From positions 150,001 through 182,000 of the forward strand of contig NC_014537.1 in NCBI RefSeq assembly GCF_000148385.1: a stretch of DNA of 32,000 nt, given 5' to 3'. Positions within the stretch are counted from its first letter, which is position 1, and the number at the start of each line of letters is the position of its first letter. The notes beneath the pieces are model-generated. The model saw only the letters and a program-made list of their open reading frames with translations. It did not search any database and was not told the origin of the DNA. The position numbers and the translations under genes were made by a program. Positions 5,902 through 32,000 of this stretch are shown here, piece after piece. The DNA is from Vulcanisaeta distributa DSM 14429 (GTDB taxonomy: Archaea > Thermoproteota > Thermoprotei > Thermoproteales > Thermocladiaceae).

Positions 5902-5993
5902 AGTTACTGAAACCTCAAGTTACTGAACCCGATAAACAACTCGGTAACTAACCATAGAGAAAAGCAATTTAAAAATGCGTATCTCGGTAACTA
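5902..5993. promoter_or_regulatory. divergent promoter region with repeated AGTTAC/GTAACT motifs and TATA box
   Basis: 'AGTTACTGAA' occurs at 5902-5911 and 5918-5927. The inverted-orientation 'TCGGTAACTA' occurs at 5941-5950 and 5984-5993. The TATA-like 'TTTAAAAA' at 5968-5975 lies about 22-25 nt upstream of ATG 5993/5996. Confidence 0.4.
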
Positions 5994-12369: not shown

Positions 12370-12730
12370 TTAGCAATTGCCTAACCTCAACCTCCGTATC
12401 GTACGTGAAGGAGACCTGGCTACGCCTTGCCAATTCATAGAACGCCAGGTATAGGCCCCTGGTCAGAGACTTAGCGTACTTATCAACAACACCTATTACG
12501 TAGGGCAGACCATCAACACCAATATTCCTGGCGAGCCACTTAACGAGGCCTTCAACGACATCCCTCATCCCATCATACGTACTCCGCAGAACCTCAACCC
12601 TGAATACCCTTGACCCCAACCCACTGTACACGTACCAAAACACCCTCTCGGGGAAGGTGTACGTGGTTATCTTACCACTTTCGCGATAGACATGCCTGAA
12701 GGGCCCAATGATTATTGGGTCGAGGACCCC
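12341..12730 (-). CDS. nurA: NurA-like nuclease, C-terminal part (frame open from 12730; ORF track lists 12341-12643)
   Basis: 'GLPYVIGVVDKYAKSL' resembles the C-terminal NurA motif. The reading frame stays open upstream to 12730, where it meets the other frame at a G5 run. Confidence 0.55.
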   Translation of the reverse strand, partial: GVLDPIIIGPFRHVYRESGKITTYTFPERVFWYVYSGLGSRVFRVEVLRSTYDGMRDVVEGLVKWLARNIGVDGLPYVIGVVDKYAKSLTRGLYLAFYELARRSQVSFTYDTEVEVRQLLSEVVGSAVA

Positions 12731-15356: not shown

Positions 15357-16196
15357 TTAATCACCCTCAGGTTGTGCTATTAAGGAGTTAATTAACTCCT
15401 CGACTGTGTAGTTGCTGGGTACTGTTGCGTATTTAATGGACTTAATGTTACCCATCGAGTCAGCCCTAAGCGTCATTATTGACTTGACCAATAGCCTGGA
15501 GTTCTGCTTAACCCTAACCATGGCGTCGATTAGGTGTATGTAGTAGATTGAGTATGACGCTGCCAGCCTAATCAACATGCTTGGGCTATATGGCTTGAAG
15601 AATTCATGGGGCCCAATGACGGCGGTCCAGATCCCAAGGCTTGATCCGCCACCATCAATCCTAACAATCACGTTATAGCCCGGTGGGTCGAAGATGTTGA
15701 AGAAGTGGCTATTACCATTGATGTAATGCACCTTACTCCAACCATTACTAGCCCTGGCAGCCTCCCTGAAGGACTCCTCATCAAACTCACCAATGTCCAC
15801 AATTCCTGACTCAGGCCCTAACCAACCTAAGTCATCAATGAGTCTCTCCGGATCTATCCTAGGCCTAGCCTCAAACTCAACAATAAAGGCTTCCAGGGCC
15901 TCCGCATCGCTGGGTATAATGATACCATACTTACTTACCAAATTCTCCTCAACCAACTTAGCTATCTTAACCATGGTATAGTCACTCTCAACAAGCTGCT
16001 TACCGGCATCCGTAACCCTATAAACGCCAACACCAACCCTCTCAATTAAGCCACGCTTAATAAGGTAATTCAGGTAATTACCACAAGCACCCCTACTCAT
16101 GTTAAGAAAACTACACAACTCACTAAACCTAGCCGAACCACCCTTCTCAACCACGTACTTAAGCAGGGCTAGGTAAAGCCCCCTCCTACCACCCAT
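15357..16196 (-). CDS. wHTH (MarR/ArsR-like) transcription regulator with about 200-aa C-terminal domain
   Basis: 'LLKYVVEKGGSARFSELCSFLNMSRGACGNYLNYLIKRGLIERVGVGVYRVTDAG' is a classic winged-helix pattern. It is similar to the 19617-20666 product ('GTVGRLLERLVKADLIERSGKGIYKLK'). Confidence 0.7.
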   Translation of the reverse strand: MGGRRGLYLALLKYVVEKGGSARFSELCSFLNMSRGACGNYLNYLIKRGLIERVGVGVYRVTDAGKQLVESDYTMVKIAKLVEENLVSKYGIIIPSDAEALEAFIVEFEARPRIDPERLIDDLGWLGPESGIVDIGEFDEESFREAARASNGWSKVHYINGNSHFFNIFDPPGYNVIVRIDGGGSSLGIWTAVIGPHEFFKPYSPSMLIRLAASYSIYYIHLIDAMVRVKQNSRLLVKSIMTLRADSMGNIKSIKYATVPSNYTVEELINSLIAQPEGD

Positions 16197-16335: not shown

Positions 16336-17526
16336 GTGGGTGTGATGGCTGAGTGCACGCCTAGGATTAGGGAGGTCAGGTATTGGGATGAGGCGTGGTG
16401 GGAGGAGGGGTTTAAAGGCATTGACGAAGCCTACTCAAGGCTAAGAGGTCTACTAGATGCCGTTAAGGAGGTTGAACTCAAATTAACCGGCAGTGACCTA
16501 AGCCAGCTACTGAGGAGTCAGCAAATGAGGGACTTCACGATGAAGGTTATCCTGGGTGGTTTCAGGCAGGAATGCGTAAATAAAACGCTGAATGCCGACG
16601 ATGTTAAGGGGTGCTTTAACAGTAACGCCTTAGCTAGATTCTACAGGGAGGTCTTCGGAATAGGGTTAAGCAATGATGACATTGCAAAGTTCGTTAATGT
16701 AGCGCAGTATGTAGGGCTGGAGAAGGCTGGTGAAGGCTTGAGGATAGTGAGTATGAGGAGTTACGTAATGGATACTTTAAATGGTATTCTAACTAGCTTC
16801 ATTAACGTATATAAGGTTGCCGGGAGGCAGGTGCCGAACCCGATGAGGTATAATGTAGATAAGCCTGAGGATTTAGCCCAGGCATTCATAGACACTACCA
16901 ACGCATTACTTAAGCTTCTCCCACTCTACAACCCATTCACATTCTTCATACAGTCACTGGACTTCACGCCAAAGCCGTATCTAAGGCTAATGTACTGCGA
17001 TAAACTATTCAGCAGCGACGTAACGAACCTAATGGCTAAGTACGGGATTAGGTTAACAACACTACTGAAACCCAGCATTAGTAAGGAGCTTGATGAGGAA
17101 CTAGCCATAATAGGGCATGAGGAAAACAGCCTAGGAAGACACCTACTAGCCACAGTATGGCACATTTACGAATTAACGTATTGGCTTAAGGGTAAGGATT
17201 ATGTTAAGAATATCGATGATGAGTTCAGGAAGTACGTCGAAAAATACTCAATCTACCTTGACGAATTCTACAGAAGATTAACAGGCAGCGGCTTTGAGGG
17301 TGTATGTAGCATGATGCTAGATATTAATATTTATTATGGTAGTAATATTAATATATATGGTCGTAGTATATTTGGACGTGATGTATTCTCATTTAGTCGT
17401 CGTGGTTGCGGTGAAATTAGAATGTCGTTAAGTTATAGCGAATTTCTCGAGCTATTCTCGCCGTTGATGTTCCTTGGACTGATTTTTAGACACCCATTAT
17501 CCAATGAGATATTTACTGTTGGGTGA
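16336..17526 (+). CDS. hypothetical protein (396 aa), paralogue of 7170-8396 product
   Basis: Shares the 'NPF.FF...Y.R..Y.D' block with the 408-aa protein. GTG 16336 lies about 28 nt from the TATA-like 16304-16312, and ATG 16345 is an alternative start. The 3' end (about 17300-17526) is AT-rich and uses CGT Arg codons. Confidence 0.6.
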   Translation: MGVMAECTPRIREVRYWDEAWWEEGFKGIDEAYSRLRGLLDAVKEVELKLTGSDLSQLLRSQQMRDFTMKVILGGFRQECVNKTLNADDVKGCFNSNALARFYREVFGIGLSNDDIAKFVNVAQYVGLEKAGEGLRIVSMRSYVMDTLNGILTSFINVYKVAGRQVPNPMRYNVDKPEDLAQAFIDTTNALLKLLPLYNPFTFFIQSLDFTPKPYLRLMYCDKLFSSDVTNLMAKYGIRLTTLLKPSISKELDEELAIIGHEENSLGRHLLATVWHIYELTYWLKGKDYVKNIDDEFRKYVEKYSIYLDEFYRRLTGSGFEGVCSMMLDINIYYGSNINIYGRSIFGRDVFSFSRRGCGEIRMSLSYSEFLELFSPLMFLGLIFRHPLSNEIFTVG

Positions 17527-19388
17527 TTTGCATGAGTATTGAGGTTGCTGTTGGTGAGGTTGATGAGGGGGTTGTTAATGTTATTTATAGGCTTAGGGGT
17601 GGTGAACAGGTCGGTGTCTCCGGCTTACCCACGTCTCAGGGGGTCCTGGAGTATGGGTTTAAGGTGCATGTGGCTAAGCCTGACCTAGGCCTGCCTAAGG
17701 AGCCTAGGCTTGAGATCACTCCACTTGACTCCACCACACCATCCATAACACCCATTGGGCTTAGGCCGGGTAATCCTGTTGAGGCCCTCTTCATCATACC
17801 TAGCGGTTTATTGATGAGTGTTAATATTAATTACGAAACACCCCAATTACCTCAATCATCACTCCTCAGCCCCATACCCAGTCTCCCGGCAGTTAATGTT
17901 GAGTTCGTTAAGGAAGCCACCGTTGAGTTGGTTGGGCTTGAGGACCTGCTACCAAAGATAAGGCCTGTATTAAGTCCTCAGTTGGGCGCCGTTGATGTCA
18001 GTTTCATCGAGGTTGGTAGGGTTGGCTTAAACCTAGACCCCTCAACATCAATCCTTCCAAGCGGTAGACCGAGTATGTTAAACCCGGTTGAGGTTTCCTT
18101 CCAGCAGGCAATGGCTTCGATGGACATCTCAACCACAGTACCCCTAACCGAATCGCAGAGGCAGGTCAATACGACAACATTAACTGAAGAGGAGATTAAG
18201 ACTGCCCAGGCGGTTGAGGAAGTATACAGTGCCGAGGAGCACCCAATTCTAGGCCTAGGCAATGTAACCCCGGAGAAGCCAGTAATTATACTCGCCCATA
18301 GGCCTAAGGAGGAGAAGGCTAACTACATTGAGTTTCTTAAGAGGTTTCTTAGGGAGGTTTATAGGGTTAGGGTTGGTGGTTTGCCGGCACCTAAGCATGT
18401 GAGTAATCCACTGGATCTTAGGCTCCTCCTCCCAATCGAGGTTGGTGCCGGCGGTAGGTTATTCATCCTAGACCTAACCAGCGAGTTGGGAAGCCATCCT
18501 AAATTCGATACTGACCTTAATAGGCTTAGGGATAGGCTTAGGGAGCTATTCTCACAGGGCTTCGGCTTCATAGTACTCTACGGTGATGAGGATTCGTTGA
18601 GGAGTATTCGAGGGAGCCTGTGGAGGGAGTTCAACATATGGAGGCCCGTTGATGTTTCAATAATGGGTGAGGATGTTGGGCTTCTCAAGCTCCTAACTCA
18701 CTTAATGTGGGGTGATGTTGAGGGTTCGGTTAGGGATGAGGCTGGCGCAGGTCTAGACGTGGTGACTGTGTACCTAGAGGATGAGTTTTGGAGAAGACTT
18801 GGGGAGGTGGCTAGGGACTTCAATGTCCTGGTTAAGGTTAGGCCAAGCTCAAGCCCTGATGAGGGTGGTAGGGAGTCTATGACGCACTACCTAACCAAGG
18901 CATTCGTAGTTAGGCACCTCATCGATGAGTTGAAGAGGGAGTTCATGGAGAGTGGGTTGGGTGAGGACGATGCGTTTAAGAAGGCATTAGATTGCGTTGA
19001 GACTGAGTACCAGTACCCGTTGGAGAAGGAGAACATTAGGCTTGACATCTATGTCAAGCAAAATTGCGGTTCAAGGCTAAGTGGATTGGCTGTGGAGGTC
19101 GAGACCCTATACGGCACTGGGACCGTCGTTCATAAGTTGCTGGAGACCGTGGAGTCCAGGGTTGGTGCTGGTGTTAAGGGGCTTTGGGTTGTGGTCCCAA
19201 ACCCGCAGGCCGTGATTTACCTACCGCTACTGCTTAGGCTTAGGAACCACGTGAGGAGTAAATATGGTGACATTGAACTCTACACACTCGATATACACAA
19301 CGGCAAGTTAGTGAAACTAACCGAGGTAGCAAAGAAAATACTAAACACAGTTAAGGAGGTGAGCGAAAAACAAAAACAACAAACATGA
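17523..19388 (+). CDS. hypothetical protein (621 aa), paralogue of 8387-10060 product; P/S-rich N-terminal region, conserved C-terminal domain
   Basis: GTG 17523 overlaps the upstream stop (GTGA), and ATG 17532 is an alternative start. See the shared blocks listed for 8387-10060. Confidence 0.65.
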   Translation: MICMSIEVAVGEVDEGVVNVIYRLRGGEQVGVSGLPTSQGVLEYGFKVHVAKPDLGLPKEPRLEITPLDSTTPSITPIGLRPGNPVEALFIIPSGLLMSVNINYETPQLPQSSLLSPIPSLPAVNVEFVKEATVELVGLEDLLPKIRPVLSPQLGAVDVSFIEVGRVGLNLDPSTSILPSGRPSMLNPVEVSFQQAMASMDISTTVPLTESQRQVNTTTLTEEEIKTAQAVEEVYSAEEHPILGLGNVTPEKPVIILAHRPKEEKANYIEFLKRFLREVYRVRVGGLPAPKHVSNPLDLRLLLPIEVGAGGRLFILDLTSELGSHPKFDTDLNRLRDRLRELFSQGFGFIVLYGDEDSLRSIRGSLWREFNIWRPVDVSIMGEDVGLLKLLTHLMWGDVEGSVRDEAGAGLDVVTVYLEDEFWRRLGEVARDFNVLVKVRPSSSPDEGGRESMTHYLTKAFVVRHLIDELKREFMESGLGEDDAFKKALDCVETEYQYPLEKENIRLDIYVKQNCGSRLSGLAVEVETLYGTGTVVHKLLETVESRVGAGVKGLWVVVPNPQAVIYLPLLLRLRNHVRSKYGDIELYTLDIHNGKLVKLTEVAKKILNTVKEVSEKQKQQT

Positions 19389-19616
19389 CATCAAACTGCC
19401 TAATCCTTTCTATCCTACGTCATCATCCGCATCAAACCCACAAACCAGCAACCCTGCTCAATAAAATACTGCATACTCCCCGTAAACCAGGGTGGTTTAC
19501 ACAGAGAATAATTAATAATCAGCATAAAAGAATAATGTGTGGTAAGATCATTATAGTGTTTATTGTGATGGTTGATGGTTCGCGTTATATATTAAATTTA
19601 AGGATTTAAGGAGTGG

Positions 19617-20666
19617 CTAGTGTGGTTCTTTAGTGAGCGTAAGTAGGGTGTTTGGTACATTTGATGGTTCTAGGTTCTCAATTTTCATTATCGTGTTTAT
19701 TAACTTAGTGAGGTCGTAACCCTGTGTAAATGGTATGTAGTGAATGAATCCTTTACGACTCTCTGTATATATCATGGAGCGAGGTATTACGTTATTACTA
19801 AATAATCTAAATAATGATAAAAACTTCATGGTATTTACTAATGAAATCATAATTAGCAGTCTTATTATTGATTCGTACGTGCCATCACTCAATTGCTCAT
19901 CACCGTACGTCGCTGACGAGACGACGCCCATGTACCTAAAGCCCTTATTCAATATTACCATGGTGACAAATTTAACGGGTTTCACAATTGAAGAATCAAC
20001 TTTAAGTTCAGTTGTACTGTATATGTATAAGTTCGATCCATCATGCCTGCACCCATCACCCCCCTGCTTAAGTACATTGAATAACTCCTCGTGTTTCTCG
20101 ATCTCACTAAGCTCTATATTTTCATAACTCGATGCAAATGCTTCTCCTAAAATGACAAGCCCAAAGTATTCAGTATTATTTTGATGATAATAAGGATTAT
20201 AATGGTATTCCCTGGCTAAATATTTACAATTTATAACTCTAGGAATTGCGTTAATAATGTTAATAATTTTATTGGTATTTTGAGCATTGGTCTCAAAGCG
20301 TGAAAGCAATAGGTCCATTCCTGACAATGTGCCGAGATCTCTCGGTAGTATTACCGGTTTAAAATAACTCAGCTCATTCAGTATTTGATTATTAATGTCA
20401 TACAATGTACGCTTAATGGCACTGTAATTACTCAGTTTTAATTTATAAATTCCCTTACCACTTCTTTCAATCAAATCTGCCTTTACCAGCCTTTCTAATA
20501 ATCTACCCACTGTACCTTTACTTTTTACGCTGTACTTTTTATGAAGAAACTCAAAAATCTCTTTAAACGAAGCGCTGTAATCAGAAGGTTTAGAACTTAA
20601 GTAATCTAAAACGTCTATCTCCTGCGCCCTTAACCCACTGGTCACACCTGCCCTCTTCCTTACCAT
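19617..20666 (-). CDS. wHTH transcription regulator with about 270-aa C-terminal domain (TTG 20681 also possible)
   Basis: 'DVLDYLSSKPSDYSASFKEIFEFLHKKYSVKSKGTVGRLLERLVKADLIERSGKGIYKLKL' fits a wHTH pattern. ATG 20666 lies about 26 nt from the TATA 'TTATAAAAA' (20690-20698). It is divergent from the 20775+ operon. Confidence 0.65.
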   Translation of the reverse strand: MVRKRAGVTSGLRAQEIDVLDYLSSKPSDYSASFKEIFEFLHKKYSVKSKGTVGRLLERLVKADLIERSGKGIYKLKLSNYSAIKRTLYDINNQILNELSYFKPVILPRDLGTLSGMDLLLSRFETNAQNTNKIINIINAIPRVINCKYLAREYHYNPYYHQNNTEYFGLVILGEAFASSYENIELSEIEKHEELFNVLKQGGDGCRHDGSNLYIYSTTELKVDSSIVKPVKFVTMVILNKGFRYMGVVSSATYGDEQLSDGTYESIIRLLIMISLVNTMKFLSLFRLFSNNVIPRSMIYTESRKGFIHYIPFTQGYDLTKLINTIMKIENLEPSNVPNTLLTLTKEPH

Positions 20667-20687
20667 AACATGTTTGCGCAAGAAATG

Positions 20688-20757
20688 TATTATAAAAATT
20701 ACGCGCGAACAGCACGAACACCATAGAACGTAATCCAGTTCGCGCTAAAAATAACTC
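20688..20757. promoter_or_regulatory. divergent promoter pair with 8-bp inverted repeat and helically phased GAAC repeats
   Basis: TATA-like elements are at 20690-20698 and 20745-20754. 'GCGCGAAC' (20703-20710) and 'GTTCGCGC' (20738-20745) are inverted repeats. GAAC occurs at 20707, 20716 and 20726 (spacing 9-10 bp), and GTTC at 20738. Confidence 0.45.
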
Positions 20758-20774
20758 GGGGTAGAGCCAGCACT

Positions 20775-21650
20775 ATGTTGGTGAGCCAGATGGGTCAGGT
20801 GGAGTTAGAGGGTGTTGATGAGGTCCCGTTAAAAACAGGTCTCGAGTGGGTTCCGGAGGAGGGTGTTGAGTTTAAGGGGCGTAGTGGGGTTGATTGGCAT
20901 GGTGGGTTCTGTGAGGGCATGGTGTATGACGTACTCGCCTATTACAAGCCGTATACGCACAATAGGGATTGGGGTATTTACTATGTGGTGCCGAGTATCG
21001 CCAATGATTTAGAGAGACTTATTGAGACTATGTATCATCAAGGCATTAATGAGGAATTGATAGCATTAACGGTAGCCATATACCCAAGCTTAATAACAAT
21101 ACATGAGGTTTGCCACCACACTCTCGAGAATGTAAGGAGGTTAATGGGGCTAAGAAACATCTATGAATCACATGATGAGGGCTTGTGCGAGTATACTGCG
21201 TTCAAATTAATTGAGGGGTCGGGTATTGCCCATCCATACCCGCTAGTAGCTTTGCTGAACCCGTTAACGCCCATGGACATTCATTTCCATGGCGACCACA
21301 TTCACGTAATAACGAGGTTTGGGGACTTCGTAATACCATTCCCAATATCAATACGCTGGCGTTGGGGAGTTAGATATCCACTAATGGTTAGTGGGGGTGA
21401 TGTTAGGAGGGCGCTTACCATACTCTATAAATGGTGGGGTAGGGGTAATGACCCCATTTATAGGCCTAGAATAAGCAATAACTATACCGCGGAGTTCCTG
21501 AGGAATTACTGGCTGCAATTGAGGGGTGACTTGGTACCATTCATGGACCACGCACTAACAAACAAGCCAGTCAAGGAGAGCCTATGGACAAAACTCAACA
21601 CTGACGATAAAAGAATCAGCATAATTACGAAATGCGGTGATAAGGCATGA
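20775..21650 (+). CDS. HExxH metallopeptidase-like protein (291 aa)
   Basis: 'TIHEVCHHTLE' (HExxH at 21102-21116) is followed by 'HDEGLCEYTAFKL', which resembles the HExxH...E..A..FA layout of ImmA/IrrE-type (M78-like) peptidases. It is a paralogue of the 5993-7186 product. Its stop overlaps the next ATG as ATGA. Confidence 0.65.
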   Translation: MLVSQMGQVELEGVDEVPLKTGLEWVPEEGVEFKGRSGVDWHGGFCEGMVYDVLAYYKPYTHNRDWGIYYVVPSIANDLERLIETMYHQGINEELIALTVAIYPSLITIHEVCHHTLENVRRLMGLRNIYESHDEGLCEYTAFKLIEGSGIAHPYPLVALLNPLTPMDIHFHGDHIHVITRFGDFVIPFPISIRWRWGVRYPLMVSGGDVRRALTILYKWWGRGNDPIYRPRISNNYTAEFLRNYWLQLRGDLVPFMDHALTNKPVKESLWTKLNTDDKRISIITKCGDKA

Positions 21651-24600
21651 TAAACAACGAAGAAACAATACTTAAAAACGGGATTGAAATAAATAACAAA
21701 ATGTCTAAGTCTCTCCCCTGCTCGCCTTGGATTGATTATACTAAGGCCCATGAAAATATTCGTAATGAATTAGAGAATACCATAACGAACTACGTAATAA
21801 AGCAGGTAAAGGGTATACGAACGCCCGTGATCGTGGCCCCCTACGGCTCAGGAAAAACAACGCTTCTAAGGCACTTACTATGTTATTCAATAGGGCAGGG
21901 TATACCTGCCATAAAGATAAACTTACTTGATTTCGTAAGTTTCCTAGAGTCGCAAAATATTAGTGATATAAATGAGGATAACCTTATCGGCTATATATCA
22001 TTATTTTGTACTAAAGCGATAGAACAAACAATTAACTGTTTGCAATCAAGTGGACAAAACTGCTTATCTTATGTTAGGAGTATTATTGATGAATTTAGTA
22101 CCATAAACATTAATAAGGATATTGCAATTGAAGTGTTAAGTAAATTCCTGAAAACTAAAGATCAAAGGTGTGTACTGCTTATTGACGAAATCGAGGAGGG
22201 TTACGAACATCTAAGGAAGATTGTAAGATTCGGAACAACGCCTTTCAGGGGAATTTTTGACTTGGTATATCAGGGTTTGCCAAGAATATTCCCGATTCTC
22301 GCGTTTGGACCATCATCGATTTACAGCGAGATTGTTTCTAACGCTGGCTCATGGAGGGTAGTCTCGTATGTAATACCGATGATTATGCCAACAAATATTA
22401 CGCAAAGGGTTACGAATTTGTCTCCGTACATTTCTAACTTAATTTGGTGGATAGGTAAGGGTAGACCTGGGCATGTTGATAAATTATTACAGATGAAAAT
22501 ACATGTTGAGGCTCAGAATGCATTGACTAACTGCCAGGGTATACTAGAGACAGATGCTGTGAAGAACCTGCAGGGTACATACGTAGTAGGCAATATACCG
22601 TACATTGATCAAGCAGCCTACAGGAGAATAGAAACAAGCTTAAATAATGATGAAAGAAATCTCTTCCGCATCTTATCAGTATTAGTGGGTCCTGTTCCCG
22701 AGTCTATGCTGAGCAAATGTATTGATATGAATAAAATAAAGTATAGCAAATTACCAGAGTATTTCATAAAATCCACACAGCTTATTAAGGTTGATGATGC
22801 CTTAAATATTCTCAAGAAGGTGCTCCTAAACCTTGGCTACACAATAAATGATTTTGCTAGAGACATACTTTACGCATTATTCTATTCATGGAGTGATCAT
22901 GATATGATGATACTCGATAAGAGGGGCCTAACCGAGTTGATAGGTATTGCTAAGGATATGGCAATCGAATTCTATCAAAACGACCTATTCAATGCATTAA
23001 GTAAACTGGACCTGGACGCACTATATACGGAGTTATTAAACAGTAAGAGAGATAGTAATGAGCATTACTATGCCCTAGCACCCTTAACGACCCTTGGCGC
23101 TATTTATCCCCCTGTTTTGTTAATGCCATTAATTGGTTGCTGTAAAGAAAAATCGCTTGATGATTTATATAGAATATTTGACAAATTTACAATAAAAGAT
23201 TTACTCAATCTAAGTGATAGACTTCAGGAAGAAATAATTAATTATGCCCACATGAGAGGTATGGACAATGAGACAATCCAAAATATGAATAAGTATAAAG
23301 TAGTTTTTGTATTAAGCAAATACATAAAGAATGATGAATTCATAAAACAAATTAAGAAACTCCTCACTAATGACTATATACATGGTATAGTATTTATACC
23401 ATTGCCTTATAATGAGGACCCAAGCTCGATAGTAAGCTCACTAAGAGAGTTGTGGCAGGATTACATTGATGTTGGATTAATCGACATTATGTACCCAAGT
23501 GCTCGCGCAATACTGTTCTTAATGGGACTTATTTATAATAAGTACGTAAGATGTGACGTTAAGTATACGGATAGAGAATTAGGTATGTATGATCAATTCA
23601 TGAGGGCTATAATTGAATTACTAAAAGAAATCATTATTAATAGATTACCGTCAAAAAGAAATAAAATAGCTCAAGCCATAGTATCCAGCAGAACCACTGA
23701 AGCAATTAAAGAGGAGCTTGAAAATATACTAAGTGAAGGATATAATAAAGTGGGAAGCGGAAAGGAAAGGTATTTACTCCTTCTCGCCGGCGCTGAACAT
23801 AGAAATATACTTGAGCAATATCTAAATACATTAATAGCAAAGAAAAGCGGCAAATATGCTTCATCAACAGGCATTATTGAAGATGTGGTAAAAAGATTTA
23901 AGGAACTTATTAATACATTGCATGATCATGGAATTGAAATAAAGCATGAAGTGACGAGCGGATTTGAAAGCTTTTTGGATAATGCCTGGGATTATTACGA
24001 TGACATAAGAAGCAGATGGGATCAAATATATGATCAGATCCAAAGCGGAGACGTATTTAATAAAGTACTCGAGGTATTAAACGATTTATACACGATTTCA
24101 AACTTGCCGAAGGAGGCGGAGACTCGTCAGTTAATTGAGGAGGAATTTAATAAAATAACGAAGAAAGTGATCGGCAACAATGAAAATAATATTAAAAGTT
24201 TAATTACTTGGATAGTACTACAAAAAATGCTCAATAAACATCCAGATAAGCTACCCTTTAATGATGAAGAGGAATGTAAAGATTCCACGGAAGAATTAAG
24301 CTCTTCTCTAAGTAAGTTAGGGGATCTCGATAATATCGTTAGTGACATAGATAAGATACTTAATAAAATTGGAAAATACATTGATAATAAATCGGTAGGG
24401 ATATTAAATGAACTAGAAAAAATTAAAGAAATAATAAATAATACTAAAGATAGTATTAATGAGGTATCGCATTATATAGAAGATTGCACTAATCGGCTTG
24501 TGGCTTTGAACACAGTAGAGAAAATGTGGTTTTTAGAATTTATAATGAGAGGCTGGAGTTCAGGGAGAAAAAGAAATAAAGGATTAATGGCTAACTTGCT

Positions 24601-25006
24601 CGATAATATTTCTAGTATAATTGATGATATTAATTCTTCACTACTTAATAACTTAAAGACTGTATTAAGGAATTTGAATGATATTGAAGCAGATCTTGAA
24701 GAACTTAAAAAATTAACCGCAAGTGATAATGAGTTATCATTAGGAAGCGTATTCGCGATAGCGGATTATGGTGCGTTAATAGAGCGTTATAGAAAAGACC
24801 TTGAGCAGGTATTGTTGAATTCAGGTACAATTCCTGAATTAGCTCAAAAGCTAAGTATACTAAAAGACGCCGTTAATGACTTAGCAAACACAATTAAAAC
24901 TATTAGGAGGGACAATGAGGTACTAGCGTTAATAAAAAAGATTGAATATAATATTAATAGGTTATCTAAGGAGATTCAAGAAATTGAAGGAGGTGAGATT
25001 TCATGA
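21647..25006 (+). CDS. large P-loop (AAA+/STAND- or BrxC-like) ATPase with about 800-aa helical/coiled-coil C-terminal region, 1119 aa
   Basis: Walker A 'APYGSGKT' (21836-21859) and Walker B 'CVLLIDEIEEG' (22172-22189) lie about 110 aa apart. 'GKGRPGHVDKLL' is sensor-2-like. The C-terminal third is K/E/N/I/L-rich with heptad-like character. Confidence 0.8.
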   Translation: MINNEETILKNGIEINNKMSKSLPCSPWIDYTKAHENIRNELENTITNYVIKQVKGIRTPVIVAPYGSGKTTLLRHLLCYSIGQGIPAIKINLLDFVSFLESQNISDINEDNLIGYISLFCTKAIEQTINCLQSSGQNCLSYVRSIIDEFSTININKDIAIEVLSKFLKTKDQRCVLLIDEIEEGYEHLRKIVRFGTTPFRGIFDLVYQGLPRIFPILAFGPSSIYSEIVSNAGSWRVVSYVIPMIMPTNITQRVTNLSPYISNLIWWIGKGRPGHVDKLLQMKIHVEAQNALTNCQGILETDAVKNLQGTYVVGNIPYIDQAAYRRIETSLNNDERNLFRILSVLVGPVPESMLSKCIDMNKIKYSKLPEYFIKSTQLIKVDDALNILKKVLLNLGYTINDFARDILYALFYSWSDHDMMILDKRGLTELIGIAKDMAIEFYQNDLFNALSKLDLDALYTELLNSKRDSNEHYYALAPLTTLGAIYPPVLLMPLIGCCKEKSLDDLYRIFDKFTIKDLLNLSDRLQEEIINYAHMRGMDNETIQNMNKYKVVFVLSKYIKNDEFIKQIKKLLTNDYIHGIVFIPLPYNEDPSSIVSSLRELWQDYIDVGLIDIMYPSARAILFLMGLIYNKYVRCDVKYTDRELGMYDQFMRAIIELLKEIIINRLPSKRNKIAQAIVSSRTTEAIKEELENILSEGYNKVGSGKERYLLLLAGAEHRNILEQYLNTLIAKKSGKYASSTGIIEDVVKRFKELINTLHDHGIEIKHEVTSGFESFLDNAWDYYDDIRSRWDQIYDQIQSGDVFNKVLEVLNDLYTISNLPKEAETRQLIEEEFNKITKKVIGNNENNIKSLITWIVLQKMLNKHPDKLPFNDEEECKDSTEELSSSLSKLGDLDNIVSDIDKILNKIGKYIDNKSVGILNELEKIKEIINNTKDSINEVSHYIEDCTNRLVALNTVEKMWFLEFIMRGWSSGRKRNKGLMANLLDNISSIIDDINSSLLNNLKTVLRNLNDIEADLEELKKLTASDNELSLGSVFAIADYGALIERYRKDLEQVLLNSGTIPELAQKLSILKDAVNDLANTIKTIRRDNEVLALIKKIEYNINRLSKEIQEIEGGEIS

Positions 25007-26274
25007 GTATTTCATTAAGTATAAAAGAGTATACTAATAAATTAAATAGTAATTATCAGCAAATTAAAAACTCCCTAAAGGAGTTAAACAATATTTTAGA
25101 ATCTCTAATGGAATTAATTTCATTGGCTAAAAAATTAAGGTTGAAAGTACCGCCTTTTCCAAGTATCGAAAAAATTGAATTGGATCAAAATAAATTAAGC
25201 AATGTTATTAATGGCTTAAGAAATTACTCCAATAATGTAATTTTGGTCATTATGAATCAATTATTGCCTGGCCTAAGTAATGATATTAATGATTGCGAAA
25301 TAATAACAGATATGTTAAATGGTACTAAAAACATACTTAAGGACTTTATTGATAGCGTGCAGGATTTATGGAAATATCGTAATGAACTTAAGTATTTACG
25401 CCAGTGCATCAAAGGGTATTGTGATCTTGTCACTAGGGTAATACATGATGGAGAACTGAAGGAGGAGGTAAAGGTATTGTCTGAGATATTCAGCATTAAG
25501 GATAAGCTTAATGGAATAAGCTTGCCTATTACGAAAGGGTTAAATCAATGCATAGATAATGTTATAAATAATGTAATAAAGGATTGCAATCTTCCTTCAT
25601 TTAACGATATCGAGAAGAGTCTCAAGAATATGCTTGACTTGCTCACGTATTTTGATAATATGATAAGTGTAGTTAATGGATTACGTACTTTGCAGTATAA
25701 TGAGTATTCACAACAAAAGGGAGATTATTGCCCTGAAATAGCGAAGATCTTTGATGATTTTATGAGCACCATTAAGGGACTTAATCTCAATGAGCTAACA
25801 TTAAAATGCGGTACACCTGAGGAATTAATAGGTCTCGTTAAAGAGATTGAGGATAAAAGGGATCAATATGTCAAGAATATACGAGATAGTCAAGCTCAGG
25901 TGATGAATTACTTAAACAGATTTAAAAAGGTATTAAGCAATAGTGAATTACGAGAAGAGTTTGAGAATACGCATAATTCGTTGGAAAAAATAACTAATCA
26001 ACTTATTACGGAGATATCCGGCAAAAGTGTGGAAGGAGAGAATATTAGACAGATATTGGATGAACTGCAGAATAAGTTAAACAGTATTTTACAGTTCATA
26101 TGTGAGAAGTTGATACCCGGGTTAGGATTGAAAGATGAGGAGTTTAAAGTAATAGTTGAATTAATCAGGAAAGGTGGAATCGCAGATTTTAAAGATTTAA
26201 GTGATGTAGGTCGTGACATAATCATCGAGCTTTGTGAAAAGGGTATATTGAGGTGCCAAGTAAGTTTGGGGTGA
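25003..26274 (+). CDS. coiled-coil protein (423 aa) with possible C-terminal wHTH
   Basis: ATG 25003 overlaps the upstream stop (ATGA). The sequence is N/K/E/L/I-rich and helical throughout. The C-terminus 'EEFKVIVELIRKGGIADFKDLSDVGRDIIIELCEKGILRCQV' is wHTH-like (tentative). Confidence 0.65.
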   Translation: MSISLSIKEYTNKLNSNYQQIKNSLKELNNILESLMELISLAKKLRLKVPPFPSIEKIELDQNKLSNVINGLRNYSNNVILVIMNQLLPGLSNDINDCEIITDMLNGTKNILKDFIDSVQDLWKYRNELKYLRQCIKGYCDLVTRVIHDGELKEEVKVLSEIFSIKDKLNGISLPITKGLNQCIDNVINNVIKDCNLPSFNDIEKSLKNMLDLLTYFDNMISVVNGLRTLQYNEYSQQKGDYCPEIAKIFDDFMSTIKGLNLNELTLKCGTPEELIGLVKEIEDKRDQYVKNIRDSQAQVMNYLNRFKKVLSNSELREEFENTHNSLEKITNQLITEISGKSVEGENIRQILDELQNKLNSILQFICEKLIPGLGLKDEEFKVIVELIRKGGIADFKDLSDVGRDIIIELCEKGILRCQVSLG

Positions 26275-26278
26275 GCCT

Positions 26279-29206
26279 GTGATTTGTTATAAGTTCGATA
26301 AGCCATTAATACCTTCTGTTGAGGAATTATTCCGTGAATGCGGTAAGGACGTTAATTTCATGAATAACTACATTATTAATAGTGTGCTTTCGTACATTGA
26401 AAGGAAAGAGCAGGATTTAGTGCTTGGAATGCAATATAATGATTGGGTAATCATCGACAGTAGCGCTAAGGACGAGATTAAGGAGCAAATAATTAATTAC
26501 ATTACTAAGTTTGCGATAGCTTGTAACGGGACTAATCGTAATAAGGACTATCTAAAGAAGGTGAGAGAGGAAGTTGATAGTAATAGGGTTGTTGAAAAGG
26601 CCCTATGCTACTTATATGCATTTGGCATATACGGTGACTGCATTAGTAGGTATTTGTTGATTAAACCCCCTGATGGTGATGAAGTACCTGACTATGAAAT
26701 CCCTGGTTTAGATAATGAAGTTGTTGAGAGGGCGAAGGACGTATTTAATAAATGCGTTGAGAAACTTAGTAAGTGGCGTGAGTATTGGGTGAGGAGTAGG
26801 TTCATAGAGATTGTTCGTGACTTATACCTACTCAAGCAGAGGTTCCCTGATAAGTCGGTGTTTGAGTCATACATGCTTATTGATAGGGTATTTGCATATG
26901 CATACCCACGTAATTTACCGCTTGGTGTTTACACGGTAAGTGACGTATGTGGTGATGGCACGTCAACGATTAACCTAAAGAAGTTAACTTACAGCTTCTT
27001 CAAGTCATACCATGATTACCTAATAGGTGCGGTAAATGAAAATATAGATGAGGAATTCGAAGAATTTTGGGAAATATTCTGTTATTTTCTACGTAAGGCA
27101 TTTAGTGATAGAAGATTCTATAGGTTTCAGATAAGGGGCGTTGAAACCGCTATTAAGAAATTATTGGGTATCTTCAATACATCCGAAAGCCGAGGGGCTG
27201 GTAAGATTGATTATTTAATAATTGCCGCACCAACAGGTAGCGGTAAGACGGAGGTTATGGTATTAACAGTATTAATTGCTGCGCTGGCGAGAAAGATAAT
27301 CCTAATAAGGCATGGACTTGATGATGAGAAAAACGTACCGATCGCATTAATGGTATATCCAAGGAGGTCCCTAGCCAATGATCAAGTATCAAGATTAATA
27401 GAGTACCTGAGTATAATAAATGAGAGGTTAAAGAACAAACTGCTGCTAACGATCAATTATACGGATATAAGAGACAAGAGAGAGTATGAAGATGCCATTA
27501 ATTCTGTTAAAGTCGGCGCAAAGCCAGTCCCCTTGCAGCTTAAGTATGGGGTTCTAGCATCCTTAATTAAAGATGGTGAGAATTATTATGTCGAACTTAG
27601 ATTTTTGACATGCCCCAGGAGGTTCACGTCAGGGTCTGGCAGTATTTATCCGAGATTTAGGGTTGTGAGGAGGGGTGATAGGTACGAGGTTGATGATTCG
27701 GTTGTGTACTGTGGTGATAATGCATTGAGTTTCATAGCCCTAACTAAGGACAGGGTTAGGGAGAGATTGGGCGATATTCACATAACAATATTCGAAACAC
27801 TTAGGCATAACTTATTTTCGAGAAGTTTCGAGAATTTATTCGGCATCTGTAGAAAGGCTGGGGATAACAAGGTGGTGTTTGATTACCCACTGATAATAGT
27901 TCTTGATGAGATACACACATACACTGACATACCTGGTGTAAGGTACACTTACATGCTTAGGAGGGTTCTAAATAGAATTAGGTATTATAGCGAGAATTGT
28001 AATGGGGATGGGTTACCAGGTAATCTCGTAATAGGCATGAGCGCAACAATACCTAATGCGGGTGAATTCCTTAGTAAATTATTCTTTTCCGAGGATATTG
28101 AAAAGAATATTAATGACTACCTAATTACTGTTGATGATGAGGAAACAATACCTCTCGGTAATGAATACTTCATAATAACGGTACCGACGCGTGGGGCTCC
28201 CGTGGATGCGTTAACGGTATCTATACAGACGATAATGAATACATTTTACAACATACCATCCATACCAATAGATAGTGGATATGTAAAGAAGGGCATAGTC
28301 TTCCTGGAAGAATTCAATGTATTGAGGAGGATGAAAAGGGAACTTTGGAATAGGGAGCAGGGAGCAATATATAGAGTTGTTGAAATTAACAATGAAGAGG
28401 TTGCTTTTGGTCTTCAAGACTTGAGAAATCCAAGAAATAGGTATTTTTACGAGGTAACACTGGAGGATTACGGTGATGATGCGAAAGTCGTCGATAATAT
28501 AAGAAGGGGTAAAATAAGCAGAGTTATTAGCGCTAGGTCGTGGCTTGATGGGGAGTTATGGTGGGGTTACATGCTAGATACTATAATCAATTACTATCCG
28601 AAGAATAACTTAAGTGATTACGTAACCACTAGATTTAACAGGGTTGTTGAGTATTCAAGTAGAAAGCGAGGGGATTTAAGGAGGGCCGATATAGTGGTCT
28701 CAACGAGTAGTTTAGAGGTGGGTGTTGATTATTCAGATGTTGTTTTAATATATCAACATGGTGCTCCCCCCAATATATCATCGCTCATACAGAGGGCGGG
28801 CAGGGGTGGTAGAAGGCTTTTTGAGAATCCGTTAATGAGGATTATAGTGGGTATTCAATTGTCGCCGGATCTACCGCATCAATCCTGGCTTTTCGAAATA
28901 TTTACCAGGGTCAAGGACTTAAGAAAGGCGATTGATTATGACAAGCTATTCCTGCCGAAAGCGAGTGAGGAAATAATGAAACAAGTGCTCGCTGAATTAG
29001 CCCTTGAATACTATGTATTGAATAACGGAAAGTTAACAAATAATTGGGAATGCAGATTAACTGGTTGGCTTAAGAAAAATAAAGAAAATATAATTAATTA
29101 CTCACAGTGGGTTTTCGCTAATGTTGAAAAAAGTAGGTTAAATAGCTTCATTGATGAGATAATAAATTACCTTGATAAAAATTGCAGAGATCAAAGTGGA
29201 AGATAG
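26279..29206 (+). CDS. SF2 DEAD/DEAH-box-type helicase (DrmA/Lhr/Ski2-like core) with about 300-aa unknown N-terminal domain, 975 aa
   Basis: Motif I is 'AAPTGSGKTE' (27224-27250), Ia 'VYPRRSLANDQ', II 'VLDEIHTY' (DEIH at 27905-27916) and III 'MSATIPN'. Motif V is 'VVSTSSLEVGVDYSDV' and VI 'QRAGRGGRR' (28790-28816). The GTG start lies 4 nt after the upstream stop. Confidence 0.9.
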   Translation: MICYKFDKPLIPSVEELFRECGKDVNFMNNYIINSVLSYIERKEQDLVLGMQYNDWVIIDSSAKDEIKEQIINYITKFAIACNGTNRNKDYLKKVREEVDSNRVVEKALCYLYAFGIYGDCISRYLLIKPPDGDEVPDYEIPGLDNEVVERAKDVFNKCVEKLSKWREYWVRSRFIEIVRDLYLLKQRFPDKSVFESYMLIDRVFAYAYPRNLPLGVYTVSDVCGDGTSTINLKKLTYSFFKSYHDYLIGAVNENIDEEFEEFWEIFCYFLRKAFSDRRFYRFQIRGVETAIKKLLGIFNTSESRGAGKIDYLIIAAPTGSGKTEVMVLTVLIAALARKIILIRHGLDDEKNVPIALMVYPRRSLANDQVSRLIEYLSIINERLKNKLLLTINYTDIRDKREYEDAINSVKVGAKPVPLQLKYGVLASLIKDGENYYVELRFLTCPRRFTSGSGSIYPRFRVVRRGDRYEVDDSVVYCGDNALSFIALTKDRVRERLGDIHITIFETLRHNLFSRSFENLFGICRKAGDNKVVFDYPLIIVLDEIHTYTDIPGVRYTYMLRRVLNRIRYYSENCNGDGLPGNLVIGMSATIPNAGEFLSKLFFSEDIEKNINDYLITVDDEETIPLGNEYFIITVPTRGAPVDALTVSIQTIMNTFYNIPSIPIDSGYVKKGIVFLEEFNVLRRMKRELWNREQGAIYRVVEINNEEVAFGLQDLRNPRNRYFYEVTLEDYGDDAKVVDNIRRGKISRVISARSWLDGELWWGYMLDTIINYYPKNNLSDYVTTRFNRVVEYSSRKRGDLRRADIVVSTSSLEVGVDYSDVVLIYQHGAPPNISSLIQRAGRGGRRLFENPLMRIIVGIQLSPDLPHQSWLFEIFTRVKDLRKAIDYDKLFLPKASEEIMKQVLAELALEYYVLNNGKLTNNWECRLTGWLKKNKENIINYSQWVFANVEKSRLNSFIDEIINYLDKNCRDQSGR

Positions 29207-29220
29207 ATGGTGATGAATCC

Positions 29221-31965
29221 ATGAGCACTCTTCAGAAGATAATTGAATCGTCTAAATTATTAAGAAATTACATACCTGATAGATTATTCGCCGAGTCAAA
29301 TTTGCCCCAGGTTAAAGTAGTGCTTGATGGCAAAGTCATTGCAGTAGAAGATGCATCATTGGTAGTCTCATCCTCTGGGTACATACCAGGAAAGCCCACG
29401 TATAGGGCATTACCAACAACAGGCACTTTCATACCCCTAGATAATAGCCGTTTTGACGAAAATATTAGGCCTATTATTACTCGAATTTCATATAATGATA
29501 GGAAATTGTATGAACCATCACCTGGTTATCCGAGTCGCTATAGTATTGATGAAATAGAGATTCCCGATGAATACAAGTATTTACTGTATTTACTTAAGGA
29601 GGTACTTAAAACTGATTATTTACCAATTGAATTTTATGCTCTTAGTAAGATTAACCCATTAAGATTTAGATGCCCAGCCAGTAAAAAGAAAAGAATATCT
29701 CTGGATAATACTCATTGGTTATTCTTTTCAAGAGCAAGAACCAATGTTGAGGTTACTAACAACATTAGTTTTTCACACTCATTTTATGCATACTTAGATA
29801 GAAGCAATTCATTTCCTAGGTTCTCGATTTATAACCCGCAGGGATTAATAAAGCCTATTAAGCAATATAATATTTGTGGAATACTTGATGCAGAGATTTA
29901 TACTGTTAAAAATGCATTTTACGGTATTTATGCTGTCGATGTATATGCGGTTTTAAAGGGCAAGTACGTAGTTGGCGATTCTAAAGGTGGGTGGTGTCGT
30001 TACACAATTAAGAGCTCCGATATAAAGACGCCTAGAGATAATACCAGCTCTACTTCAATGTATTGTATAAGCACTAAAAATGGCTGTAGATATAGTAACT
30101 ATTTCGTTAAGATTTTTGTAGACGGTGATCATAACAATTGGAATCCTGTAATACTTGGATACGAGATTAAAAACACGAGAATGCTCACGCTAGACATTAA
30201 GGATTTAATAAGAAAAATAGCCTCATCAATAGTCAATATCGGTGAAGTAGAGCAAGGACAGGACTTAAAGCTTGATTATGAATATAAAACCCTCAGCACA
30301 AATACTGCAGTAGTTAATCTACTAAGGCATTACCTATCTCATGACTTGGTAATAACGTATTACTTAACAAGGCTTGGCTTCACAAAGATCGATAAATACG
30401 TTAATCTTTCAATACTAATAAATGATTTATTCCTCGGTAATAAACTAACCGTGAAGTTGGAAAAGGACGATGTTAAGGATCTTGCTAGTGATATTATTAA
30501 TGATTTCATTAAATCATTTGATAAGGAAATAAGGCAGTCCTGGATATCATTATTACGATATGTATTATCCACGGTCAAAGGTGAGAGGTTAGAAACATAC
30601 CGTATATTTCGTGAATGTAAGAATAATAAAAATACTCAAAGATACTGTATTCCTCACGAGGAAGCGGAGAATATTTGGAATAACATAGAAAAGCGAATAG
30701 AAGGTATCTTAAAGAACTATAGTGAAATACCGAGTTACTTTGGGGTTAGGACTACTTATTGGTACGTTGGCGCTATTATTGATATCATAAAGCATACATT
30801 AAGTCATCATTTAATAAGAACTATTAGCACAAGATATAGTGTTAACCCAAGTAAACTTATTGAGTATTATTACGAAATGAGAGGAGACGCTAAGGTTTCC
30901 ATCATGGAAAGGGACTCTGGGGGTATTGGTGTATTAAATGTGGCCTTTGAGTCATGGGAAAAATCTGATAAGGAATTGAGGGAGAGACAAGTCGCTATTG
31001 AGGACCTCATACTATCCTTAGGTAAGTGCCTTGTCGGTACTCCTGAAGACTTACTGCACTTCGCGTTGCTGAATGATGATATTCGTGAAAGGTTATGTAG
31101 CGGTAAAGATAATGATGTAAGAGAGGGTATAAGGGAGATTATTAGGAGATTGAACATAATAGTTACCCCAGATGAGTTTGAGGAGACTATTAAGTTATGG
31201 AAATCAATATACGAGGAGGCTGATAGACTTACACGAATATTACGCAATGGGAATAATTACTTAGGTAATGAACCATGTAAATTATTAAGGGCTGTTCATG
31301 AGTTAAGACATGAACTGGAGAAGAAAATGAGGAGGTTTCCGGACATGGACGAATTGATGGCTTATATGCTCGAGAATATTGATGAATACTCCATACTTAA
31401 TGATTTGCTAACTAAGATGCTAGAGAGGGGGCTTAGGACCTCTGGCAGGTTTAGGGAATTTCTTCATGAGTTGTATGGAACGAATGATTATGTTAAGAGG
31501 TTCATAGGGGGTGTTAATTTTATCCTGAGAAGCAGAATACAGGACATCGATCATTTAAAGGAACTGGTGAGAAACAGTAATGATATCGTGTCAAAGTACG
31601 GCACTAAGGCGCTTGAGAAAATAACTGAATGTGTAGGTAAGCGAAGGGATGGTGATGATACGTGTAAAGCAGTTATACATGCATTGAAGCTTTTGGGTAG
31701 GGCACTCCGTGCGGTGTTAATGAGGATCTCGCTACTTAGTTGTAATGGTGCATGCGGTATGTGCTATGTGAATACTAAGTCATGCAGTAGGTTTGGCGCA
31801 CCCTTCATTCAGGCCAGGACACTTGATAGGAGGGTCCTTAAGGTACTTGCCTCCGAACTCGTTAGGCACATGAGCGATATCGTTAGGGATTACTACGGCG
31901 TTAATAAGGATGTTGATGTTATTGTGGAGCTTGGCGGTGAGCCCCGTACATTGAGGTGTGAATAA
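29221..31965 (+). CDS. DUF1998-like (DrmB/MrfA-C-terminal-like) protein with C-terminal Cys cluster, about 914 aa (ORF open from TTG 29182)
   Basis: 'HTLSHHLIRTIS' (from 30793) and 'ERDSGGIGVLN' fit the DUF1998 core as I recall it. The terminal 'CNGACGMCYVNTKSCSRFG...ARTLDRRVL' (Cys codons at 31741, 31753, 31762 and 31783) has the same layout as the DUF1998 Zn-cluster. ATG 29221 lies 15 nt after the helicase stop. Confidence 0.8.
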   Translation: MSTLQKIIESSKLLRNYIPDRLFAESNLPQVKVVLDGKVIAVEDASLVVSSSGYIPGKPTYRALPTTGTFIPLDNSRFDENIRPIITRISYNDRKLYEPSPGYPSRYSIDEIEIPDEYKYLLYLLKEVLKTDYLPIEFYALSKINPLRFRCPASKKKRISLDNTHWLFFSRARTNVEVTNNISFSHSFYAYLDRSNSFPRFSIYNPQGLIKPIKQYNICGILDAEIYTVKNAFYGIYAVDVYAVLKGKYVVGDSKGGWCRYTIKSSDIKTPRDNTSSTSMYCISTKNGCRYSNYFVKIFVDGDHNNWNPVILGYEIKNTRMLTLDIKDLIRKIASSIVNIGEVEQGQDLKLDYEYKTLSTNTAVVNLLRHYLSHDLVITYYLTRLGFTKIDKYVNLSILINDLFLGNKLTVKLEKDDVKDLASDIINDFIKSFDKEIRQSWISLLRYVLSTVKGERLETYRIFRECKNNKNTQRYCIPHEEAENIWNNIEKRIEGILKNYSEIPSYFGVRTTYWYVGAIIDIIKHTLSHHLIRTISTRYSVNPSKLIEYYYEMRGDAKVSIMERDSGGIGVLNVAFESWEKSDKELRERQVAIEDLILSLGKCLVGTPEDLLHFALLNDDIRERLCSGKDNDVREGIREIIRRLNIIVTPDEFEETIKLWKSIYEEADRLTRILRNGNNYLGNEPCKLLRAVHELRHELEKKMRRFPDMDELMAYMLENIDEYSILNDLLTKMLERGLRTSGRFREFLHELYGTNDYVKRFIGGVNFILRSRIQDIDHLKELVRNSNDIVSKYGTKALEKITECVGKRRDGDDTCKAVIHALKLLGRALRAVLMRISLLSCNGACGMCYVNTKSCSRFGAPFIQARTLDRRVLKVLASELVRHMSDIVRDYYGVNKDVDVIVELGGEPRTLRCE

Positions 31966-32000
31966 TGCTATGGATATGTAAGGACTCTAGTAGAAGCCTT
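31965..32000 (+). CDS. 5' end of a further operon gene (partial, truncated by window)
   Basis: ATG at 31965-31967 overlaps the TAA stop (31963-31965) as TAATG, and the frame stays open to the window end (MLWICKDSSRSL...). Only 12 codons are visible. Confidence 0.25.
   Translation, partial: MLWICKDSSRSL

Follow-up and report, generated by a model that had tools for sequence, protein, structure and literature searches.

In canonical Dpd islands, DpdA, DpdB and DpdC mark DNA with preQ0/ADG, and DpdD–K carry out restriction. The DpdHI pair has been described as the equivalent of BrxC (Bell et al., 10.1101/2025.09.15.676423). BrxC itself consists of an ORC/Cdc6-type AAA+ head, a winged helix-turn-helix (wHTH), an alpha+beta region of about 200 amino acids (aa), a second wHTH and a coiled coil of 250–500 aa that carries a distal two-strand subdomain (PMC12839542). 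BrxC is further described as binding DNA under the control of ATP, self-associating and binding BrxB–PglZ (PMC13326643). BRIGADE systems, which are haloarchaeal Dpd/ARMADA hybrids, are reported only in halophilic archaea (Bell et al. 2025). Here we consider two adjacent genes of the thermoproteote Vulcanisaeta distributa DSM 14429, encoding a 1119-aa ATPase and a 423-aa helical partner, in a 32,000-nucleotide stretch of its genome (contig NC_014537.1, positions 150,001–182,000; hereafter the window).

Analysis of the window and of related loci points to a 7-deazaguanine Dpd-like island in V. distributa, with this pair at the front of its restriction operon. We think it rather probable that the pair is the BrxC/DpdH–DpdI-like component of a Thermoproteota Dpd-like DNA modification–restriction island. 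A first-pass annotation, made from the DNA sequence alone, could not map the arrangement to any named system; it now appears to be the restriction half of a Dpd-like island, with genes for a DpdA–DUF6884 fusion, a DpdK-like phospholipase D (PLD) protein and a preQ transporter lying past the end of the window. Islands of the Dpd kind are already known. What appears to be new is a Dpd-like island in Thermoproteota whose BrxC/DpdHI-like component comes from a family without a Pfam or NCBIfam model among its tested members. By its structural model the ATPase is laid out like BrxC, and by gene order it is placed like DpdH, but no sequence model of either family matches it at cutoff.

Organization of the locus

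The genes of the operon, and the gene that precedes them, are as follows.

20775–21650, + strand: 291-aa protein with an HExxH motif (open reading frame (ORF) list); overlaps the ATPase gene by ATGA
21647–25006, + strand: 1119-aa ORC/Cdc6-type AAA+ ATPase with a BrxC-like layout (ORF, alignment, AlphaFold2 model, Foldseek)
25003–26274, + strand: 423-aa helical partner in the DpdI position (ORF, ATGA coupling, position in related loci)
26279–29206, + strand: 975-aa superfamily 2 (SF2) helicase of the YprA family (ORF; PADLOC, NCBIfam and Pfam matches)
29182–31965, + strand: 927-aa Cys-rich DUF1998/MZB-like protein (ORF; weak PADLOC and Pfam matches)

The ATPase, the partner, the DpdJ-like helicase and the DUF1998-like protein form one coupled operon with the pair at its front. 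The first-pass annotation had read the ATPase and partner genes as translationally coupled, and both ORFs are indeed present on the + strand and overlap by ATGA at 25003–25006. A second ATGA overlap, at 21647–21650, joins the 291-aa ORF to the ATPase. Only 4 bases separate the partner gene from the helicase gene, and the helicase and DUF1998-like ORFs overlap by 25 bases. The GC content is 0.31–0.42 over 19000–32000, with a strong positive GC skew, and 0.45–0.55 upstream; a low-GC block with such a skew points to a horizontally acquired island. No tRNA gene marking an integration site was found within the window. The first 18–23 residues of the ATPase have low model confidence and are common only to the homologue from a Vulcanisaeta metagenome-assembled genome (MAG). 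Because other homologues begin at the equivalent of M19, the true start of the ATPase could be 21701.

The helicase–DUF1998 pair noted alongside in the first reading is also borne out, as a helicase with Pfam DEAD and Helicase_C domains followed by a protein with a weak MZB/DUF1998 signal. In PADLOC, the helicase matches DpdJ (E 3e-40, 135.8 bits) far better than DrmA (45 bits). The NCBIfam DpdJ model aligns over profile positions 150–529 with 117.6 bits against a cutoff of 800, and in scans of related loci DpdJ is again the best match below that cutoff (154.7 bits versus 800). The N terminus of the 927-aa protein matches positions 768–817 of the PADLOC DpdJ profile (E 0.0027) and, weakly, MZB (E 0.049). 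These matches suggest that the helicase is the N-terminal half of DpdJ and the 927-aa protein the equivalent of its C-terminal half, that is, a split DpdJ. A DUF1998-like gene is conserved after the helicase gene in all Dpd-type loci, a class of related locus described below.

Two locus entries from read assemblies of the same organism, L030 and L031 (L numbers denote locus entries throughout), encode an identical 927-aa protein and continue past the end of the window. The order after this gene is a 255-aa PLD protein (PLDc_2), Vut_1 (a queuosine-precursor transporter model), a 615-aa DpdA–DUF6884 protein, an ATPase_2/BrxD-like protein and a protein resembling a tRNA-guanine transglycosylase (TGT). 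The 615-aa protein of L030 scores 275.8 bits with NCBIfam DpdA (cutoff 200), and its counterpart in L007 scores 233.5 bits. DUF6884, which is the DpdC domain (10.1101/2025.02.24.639861), is fused to DpdA in L001, L002, L005 and L007 and gives a weak match in L030. For the PLD protein, DpdK is the best NCBIfam match in the L007 and L030 scans, scoring 33 and 50.6 bits where the cutoff is 100. No DpdB (ParB/DndB-like ATPase) was found among the genes scanned in the fetched L007 and L030 regions.

Structure of the ATPase

Conservation was judged from an alignment of 38 homologues, and the fold from an AlphaFold2 model built on a homologue alignment, which is confident (mean pLDDT 84.7). The principal features of the head are these.

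21845–21859, + strand: Walker A, GSGKT, residues 67–71; G67, S68, G69 and K70 invariant (n = 38)
22175–22198, + strand: Walker B, LLIDEIEE, residues 177–184, on strand beta3 (175–180); D180, E181 and E183 invariant
22355–22357, + strand: candidate arginine finger R237, at the base of strand beta5 (238–242); W236 and R237 invariant

As first reported, the two Walker motifs lie about 110 aa apart, and both are invariant in 38/38 homologues, as are R201, W236, R237 and a WWxxKGR motif at 267–273. In the model, strands 1 (59–63) and 2 (88–92) are followed by a helical insert (93–169), strand 3 (175–180), strand 4 (214–220), strand 5 (238–242) and a helical lid (248–294). A Foldseek search against the Protein Data Bank (PDB) places ORC/Cdc6 structures first (1w5t, 7jgr, 2qby; E 5e-4 to 3e-3) and classical AAA+ proteins next, and the modelled head is that of an ORC/Cdc6-clade AAA+ protein. 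An arginine at the base of strand 5 is a hallmark of ORC, Cdc6 and BrxC (PMC12839542), and the position of R237 agrees with it. Both Walker motifs lie in one AAA+ domain with the arm C-terminal to it, rather than being split by a coiled coil as in SMC and Rad50; the earlier preference for an AAA+/STAND-type head over an SMC/Rad50 head is thus upheld by the top Foldseek matches. No Pfam, NCBIfam or PADLOC model matches the ATPase at cutoff; sub-threshold matches are limited to P-loop/AAA models in the head and short stretches of the tail. PDB searches with the family profile were uninformative, returning coiled-coil noise only at full length and P-loop matches only with the N-terminal profile.

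Beyond the head, the protein falls into two regions.

22532–23566, + strand: mixed alpha/beta middle, residues ~296–640 (model; conserved columns up to C636)
23567–25003, + strand: all-helical, fast-evolving tail, residues ~641–1119, ~480 aa (model, heptad test, identity gradient)
24551–24580, + strand: beta-hairpin within the tail, residues 969–978; strands 969–972 and 975–978 between helices 956–968 and 980–1024

The first-pass annotation had some 800 aa of helix following the head. The model contradicts this, as residues ~296–640 are mixed alpha/beta, with strands at 312–314, 373–381, 420–422, 468–477, 550–556, 580–586 and 612–614, and only 642–1119 (~480 aa) is all-helical. In size, the middle region fits BrxC's triad of wHTH, alpha+beta domain and wHTH, to which it may correspond. 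The tail is modelled as helices of 15–45 residues, broken by the hairpin at 969–978, which is a candidate apex subdomain of a coiled-coil arm, comparable to the distal two-strand subdomain of BrxC (PMC12839542). In a crude heptad test, in which a/d core positions were scored against shuffled sequence, only residues 878–1119 are clearly heptad-like (80% of residues versus a shuffled maximum of 31%). The heptad character claimed for the end of the tail therefore holds for this segment and fails for 640–880. The tail also evolves much faster than the head: the closest homologue is 49% identical over the tail and 68–75% over the head, and for the other relatives the figures are 15–21% and 37–50%.

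The partner protein

In every locus with enough sequence, the partner gene lies directly downstream of the ATPase gene. The two are thus an obligate pair, and the co-occurrence on which the first annotation wished its proposal to be judged is found. Searched by sequence, the 423-aa partner matched nothing but itself; the product of the gene just downstream of each ATPase homologue can still be aligned with it, and its homologues were gathered by gene position together with a C-terminal motif. The C-terminal ~50 residues are the only well-conserved part of the protein.

26116–26271, + strand: conserved C-terminal domain of the partner; L410, C411 and C418 invariant, motif [LI]CxxGxxxC

The partner-position ORFs of the window and of 14 locus entries carry the motif, L010 has a variant of it, and it is also present in Saccharolobus shibatae. 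The domain may be a small HTH or wHTH. A single-sequence model of the partner is all-helical and of low confidence (pLDDT 41), too poor for a fold search, and by the same crude test heptad character is confined to residues 5–41, 119–149 and 332–369. The partner had been described as almost entirely helical and coiled-coil: the model agrees with the helices, and the coiled coil shrinks to these three segments. The lengths of ATPase and partner are correlated overall (r = 0.81), and the correlation was considered as a sign of co-adaptation; it was rejected because the correlation does not hold within clades (r = 0.41 and 0.08).

Family distribution and neighborhoods

A word-index search yielded 43 homologues of the ATPase, and a full hidden Markov model (HMM) scan of 1.84 billion representatives (E <= 1e-3) gave ~224 family clusters at 50% identity. 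None of the members tested, distant ones included, has a Pfam or NCBIfam family. The named close relatives are archaeal, from Vulcanisaeta, Caldivirga, Pyrodictiaceae, Hyperthermus, Culexmicrobium, S. shibatae and a Helarchaeota MAG. Matches in Myxococcota (P0041 and P0043), the weakest, were set aside, having only the AAA+ head in common and no comparable context.

Three kinds of neighborhood can be told apart by what accompanies the pair. In the Dpd type, to which the window locus belongs, the ATPase and partner genes are followed by those for the DpdJ-like helicase, the DUF1998-like protein and the PLD protein, and a 615–631-aa DpdA–DUF6884 protein is encoded alongside. Vut_1, a further TGT-like gene, a BrxD-like ATPase and QueF are often present too. 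The type is found in L001/L009 (Vulcanisaeta), L002/L003, L005, L007, L010, L014 (Culexmicrobium) and L025 (Caldivirga). In the stand-alone type, of Pyrodictiaceae and Hyperthermus, a shorter ATPase (~870–900 aa) and its partner lie in a conserved housekeeping neighborhood. Other loci combine the ATPase with different helicases. In S. shibatae it is followed by proteins of 356 and 130 aa and a DEAD helicase (SngC/BrxHI/DpdF-like), amid toxin–antitoxin and insertion sequence (IS) genes; in Helarchaeota and related metagenome loci it is followed by a ~520-aa protein, a SNF2 helicase (HmaA/DrmD/DpdE-like) and a 200-aa protein. The association of the pair with different SF2 helicases elsewhere among archaea suggests a portable sensor or scaffold module of restriction-like systems.

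The SNF2-type cassettes adjoin genes for a C5 DNA methylase and an HhH-GPD glycosylase. These two genes are convergent to the cassette (L035:19250–21412, L036:15027–17223, L037:11075–13271), across two divergent ATPase clusters. L036 and L037 add a ribbon-helix-helix (RHH) gene and a HinfI-like endonuclease, which may be part of the system or a neighboring type II restriction–modification (R-M) system.

Comparison with known systems

The resemblance to BrxC lies in layout and setting. The ATPase head has a helical insert after strand 2, an arginine at the base of strand 5 and a helical lid; by its model, an alpha/beta middle and a C-terminal helical arm with a two-strand element follow; and the gene lies beside that of an SF2 helicase in a DNA-modification-dependent system. 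Unlike BrxC, the ATPase has an obligate separate helical partner, and, unlike in BREX, modification is the task of a DpdA transglycosylase, not of a methyltransferase. No PglZ or PglX-type methyltransferase was found in the window, in the ~7 kb past the 927-aa gene (L030) or in related loci, and neither BrxA nor BrxB was found nearby.

The gene order of the window is closest to that of bacterial Dpd islands, in which a large ATPase and a smaller protein lie directly upstream of DpdJ, which DpdK follows, and DpdA and a DpdC-type domain are present in the island. On the Paenibacillus plasmid NZ_CP043762.1, DpdG (287 aa), DpdH (1078 aa), a DpdI-position protein (217 aa) and DpdJ stand in a row, compared with proteins of 291, 1119 and 423 aa and a split DpdJ in the window. 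The partner is, however, twice the length of DpdI, and in the archaeal island DpdJ is split and DpdA and DpdC are fused. No homologues of DpdB, DpdD, DpdE, DpdF or DpdG were found in the regions of the archaeal loci examined. The same plasmid carries two dpdJ genes, and its first dpdJ–dpdK is preceded by a 1055-aa P-loop NTPase (L027:23851–27018) unrelated to DpdH. This protein was compared as a possible relative of the ATPase, and the two have nothing beyond the P-loop in common. An unrelated NTPase in this place suggests that the large-ATPase slot before DpdJ is recurrent and replaceable.

Two further systems share parts of the arrangement. The trio of helicase, DUF1998 protein and PLD protein after the pair recalls DrmA, DrmB and DrmC of DISARM, but there is no DrmMI/MII methylase, DrmD or DrmE here, and DISARM is without a BrxC-like ATPase. 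BRIGADE, like the present locus, is archaeal and combines 7-deazaguanine genes with a DpdHI/BrxC-type factor, a YprA-family helicase and a PLD nuclease. It differs in having two YprA helicases and DpdG, whereas the Vulcanisaeta locus has a single split DpdJ-like helicase, belongs to Thermoproteota and uses an ATPase family missed by the standard models. The part of the BRIGADE supplement text that was searched lists neither Vulcanisaeta nor Caldivirga. The literature searched for DpdH and Dpd-like systems contained nothing on Thermoproteota and mentioned only "uncharacterized Dpd-like classes" and the haloarchaeal BRIGADE.

Possible function of the pair

If the pair is the BrxC/DpdH–DpdI-like component of the island, the following mechanism can be envisaged. 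The DpdA–DpdC fusion would mark host DNA with a 7-deazaguanine base. The ATPase–partner complex would bind DNA and oligomerize under ATP control, as BrxC does; the contact between the two proteins could be made through the heptad segments of both, and the C-terminal domain of the partner could contact DNA or the helicase. On unmodified DNA, the complex would then recruit or license the split DpdJ-like helicase and the PLD nuclease. Since the pair shares an operon with the helicase/DUF1998 module, it could reasonably act as a scaffold or recruiter, as first suggested; the filament that was proposed along with it has gained no specific support.

Several observations weigh against this reading. 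At E <= 0.1, the ATPase matches none of Pfam DUF499/BrxC_BrxD, NCBIfam BrxC and PADLOC BrxC/PglY. An N-terminal family profile finds no match to the BrxC chains 9zdx, 9zn5 and 9zll, and hhalign gives the family profile a probability of only 16% against Escherichia coli HS BrxC. The comparison with Dpd proteins is no stronger: NCBIfam DpdH (cutoff 450 bits) does not match the ATPase, the family profile (Neff 7.1) aligns with a DpdH profile (Neff 6.5) only at Walker A (probability 24%), NCBIfam DpdI reaches 15.4 bits (E 0.014) against a cutoff of 150, and the partner profile has a probability of 0.5% against the Paenibacillus DpdI-position protein. At sequence level, then (Pfam, PADLOC, NCBIfam and profile–profile comparison), the ATPase is not the clear full-length BrxC or PglY that the first-pass annotation had named as the outcome that would overturn its proposal. 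A control comparison of the DpdH profile with BrxC itself gave only 19%, which makes the profile test a weak one, and homology is neither shown nor excluded by it. The poor confidence of the partner model also counts on this side, as does the Pyrodictiaceae pair: within 10 kb of it lies neither a helicase, a nuclease nor DpdA, which implies that the pair can exist without a role in a restriction island.

The stand-alone loci bear on two other accounts. It is possible, if somewhat doubtful, that the pair is an unannotated module, archaeal in all its named close relatives, of an ORC/Cdc6-like AAA+ protein with a coiled-coil arm and a helical adaptor, sister or convergent to BrxC/DpdHI, that plugs into at least three types of SF2 helicase (YprA/DpdJ, DEAD/DpdF–BrxHI-like and SNF2/DpdE–DrmD-like) and works with varied DNA marks (7-deazaguanine and possibly C5-methylcytosine), and that in Pyrodictiaceae has turned into a core gene pair standing alone, possibly with a chromosomal role. 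We consider it unlikely that the pair has an autonomous chromosomal role, with an ORC-like AAA+ protein and its coiled-coil arm organizing or loading DNA, and was only later borrowed by defence islands. The housekeeping neighborhood in Pyrodictiaceae and Hyperthermus, free of helicase, PLD and DpdA genes, is what such a role would lead one to expect, but the window pair sits in a low-GC block coupled to defence-type genes, the Dpd-type operon recurs in at least eight loci, and three further loci carry other helicase cassettes amid toxin–antitoxin, IS, prokaryotic Argonaute (pAgo) and R-M genes. The fast-evolving tail is likewise what an arms race would predict.

The missing DpdB raises the question of whether the pair belongs instead to the modification half, with the ATPase powering base exchange by DpdA in place of DpdB. 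The archaeal loci examined showed no DpdB/ParB-like gene, and another NTPase has been proposed to replace DpdB in a different TGT-containing system (PMC12839542). Substitution by this pair nevertheless seems improbable to us: its genes are coupled to those for the helicase, the DUF1998 protein and the PLD protein, whereas the DpdA–DUF6884 gene is on the strand opposite to all of these; the separate BrxD-like ATPase beside the second TGT is a closer candidate; and the pair is also found alone, and beside helicases in loci whose retrieved stretch has no DpdA. That the pair is an independent defence system lying next to a DpdJ/DpdK-type module by chance is very improbable. Defence genes do cluster, and the window also holds HerA–NurA and other ATPases, but the same order of overlapping or nearly abutting genes (ATPase, partner, helicase, DUF1998, PLD) is kept in Vulcanisaeta, Caldivirga, Culexmicrobium, Pyrodictiaceae and metagenome loci at 25–70% identity.

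Other genes of the window

The 291-aa protein upstream of the ATPase has a conserved HExxH motif (IHEVCHH), which is kept in a 57% identical homologue in L001. The gene is confined to the two Vulcanisaeta loci and absent from the other loci compared, and its product has no Pfam, NCBIfam or PADLOC match. By sequence it may be a lineage-specific, metallopeptidase-like accessory. Its identification as a DpdG-like protein was ruled out by BLASTP and by the lack of a family-model match. Divergent from the operon is a gene for a 354-aa protein with an N-terminal MarR/AbiEi-like wHTH (19617–20681, − strand), a possible regulator; in L001 this position is taken by a 321-aa gene.

Farther upstream, a HerA-like ATPase (677 aa; PADLOC HerA, 203 bits) is encoded near a NurA nuclease (264 aa) on the same strand (10336–13506, −), a module that could be of the defence or the repair type. 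An AAA_5/MoxR-like ATPase of 342 aa is encoded right next to a 293-aa ORF without a family match (3952–5862, −), and the two may be a two-gene ATPase system. Three overlapping ORFs of 403, 408 and 557 aa (5975–10060, +) are operon-like and have no Pfam or PADLOC match. A 279-aa protein (15357–16196, −) has weak PADLOC matches to CRISPR type III-associated WH/CARF proteins (E 8e-5 and 6e-4). Two overlapping ORFs of 396 and 621 aa (16336–19388, +) have no family match; the 621-aa ORF (17523–19388) was suspected, from its length, to be the DpdA–DUF6884 gene, but proved unrelated to it on comparison.

Significance

The mechanisms of Dpd restriction and of BREX are not understood, and the BrxC/DpdH-type ATPase is their least understood common part. 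In the family described here, the layout of BrxC persists although no sequence similarity to BrxC is detected, and the adaptor is a polypeptide of its own, which helps to tell which features matter. As no Pfam or NCBIfam model exists among the members tested, current defence finders would miss or under-annotate such loci. If our interpretation is correct, Dpd-like systems extend to hyperthermophilic Thermoproteota in a compact form with a DpdA–DpdC fusion, a split DpdJ and no DpdB, and 7-deazaguanine is predicted to be present in the DNA of Vulcanisaeta.

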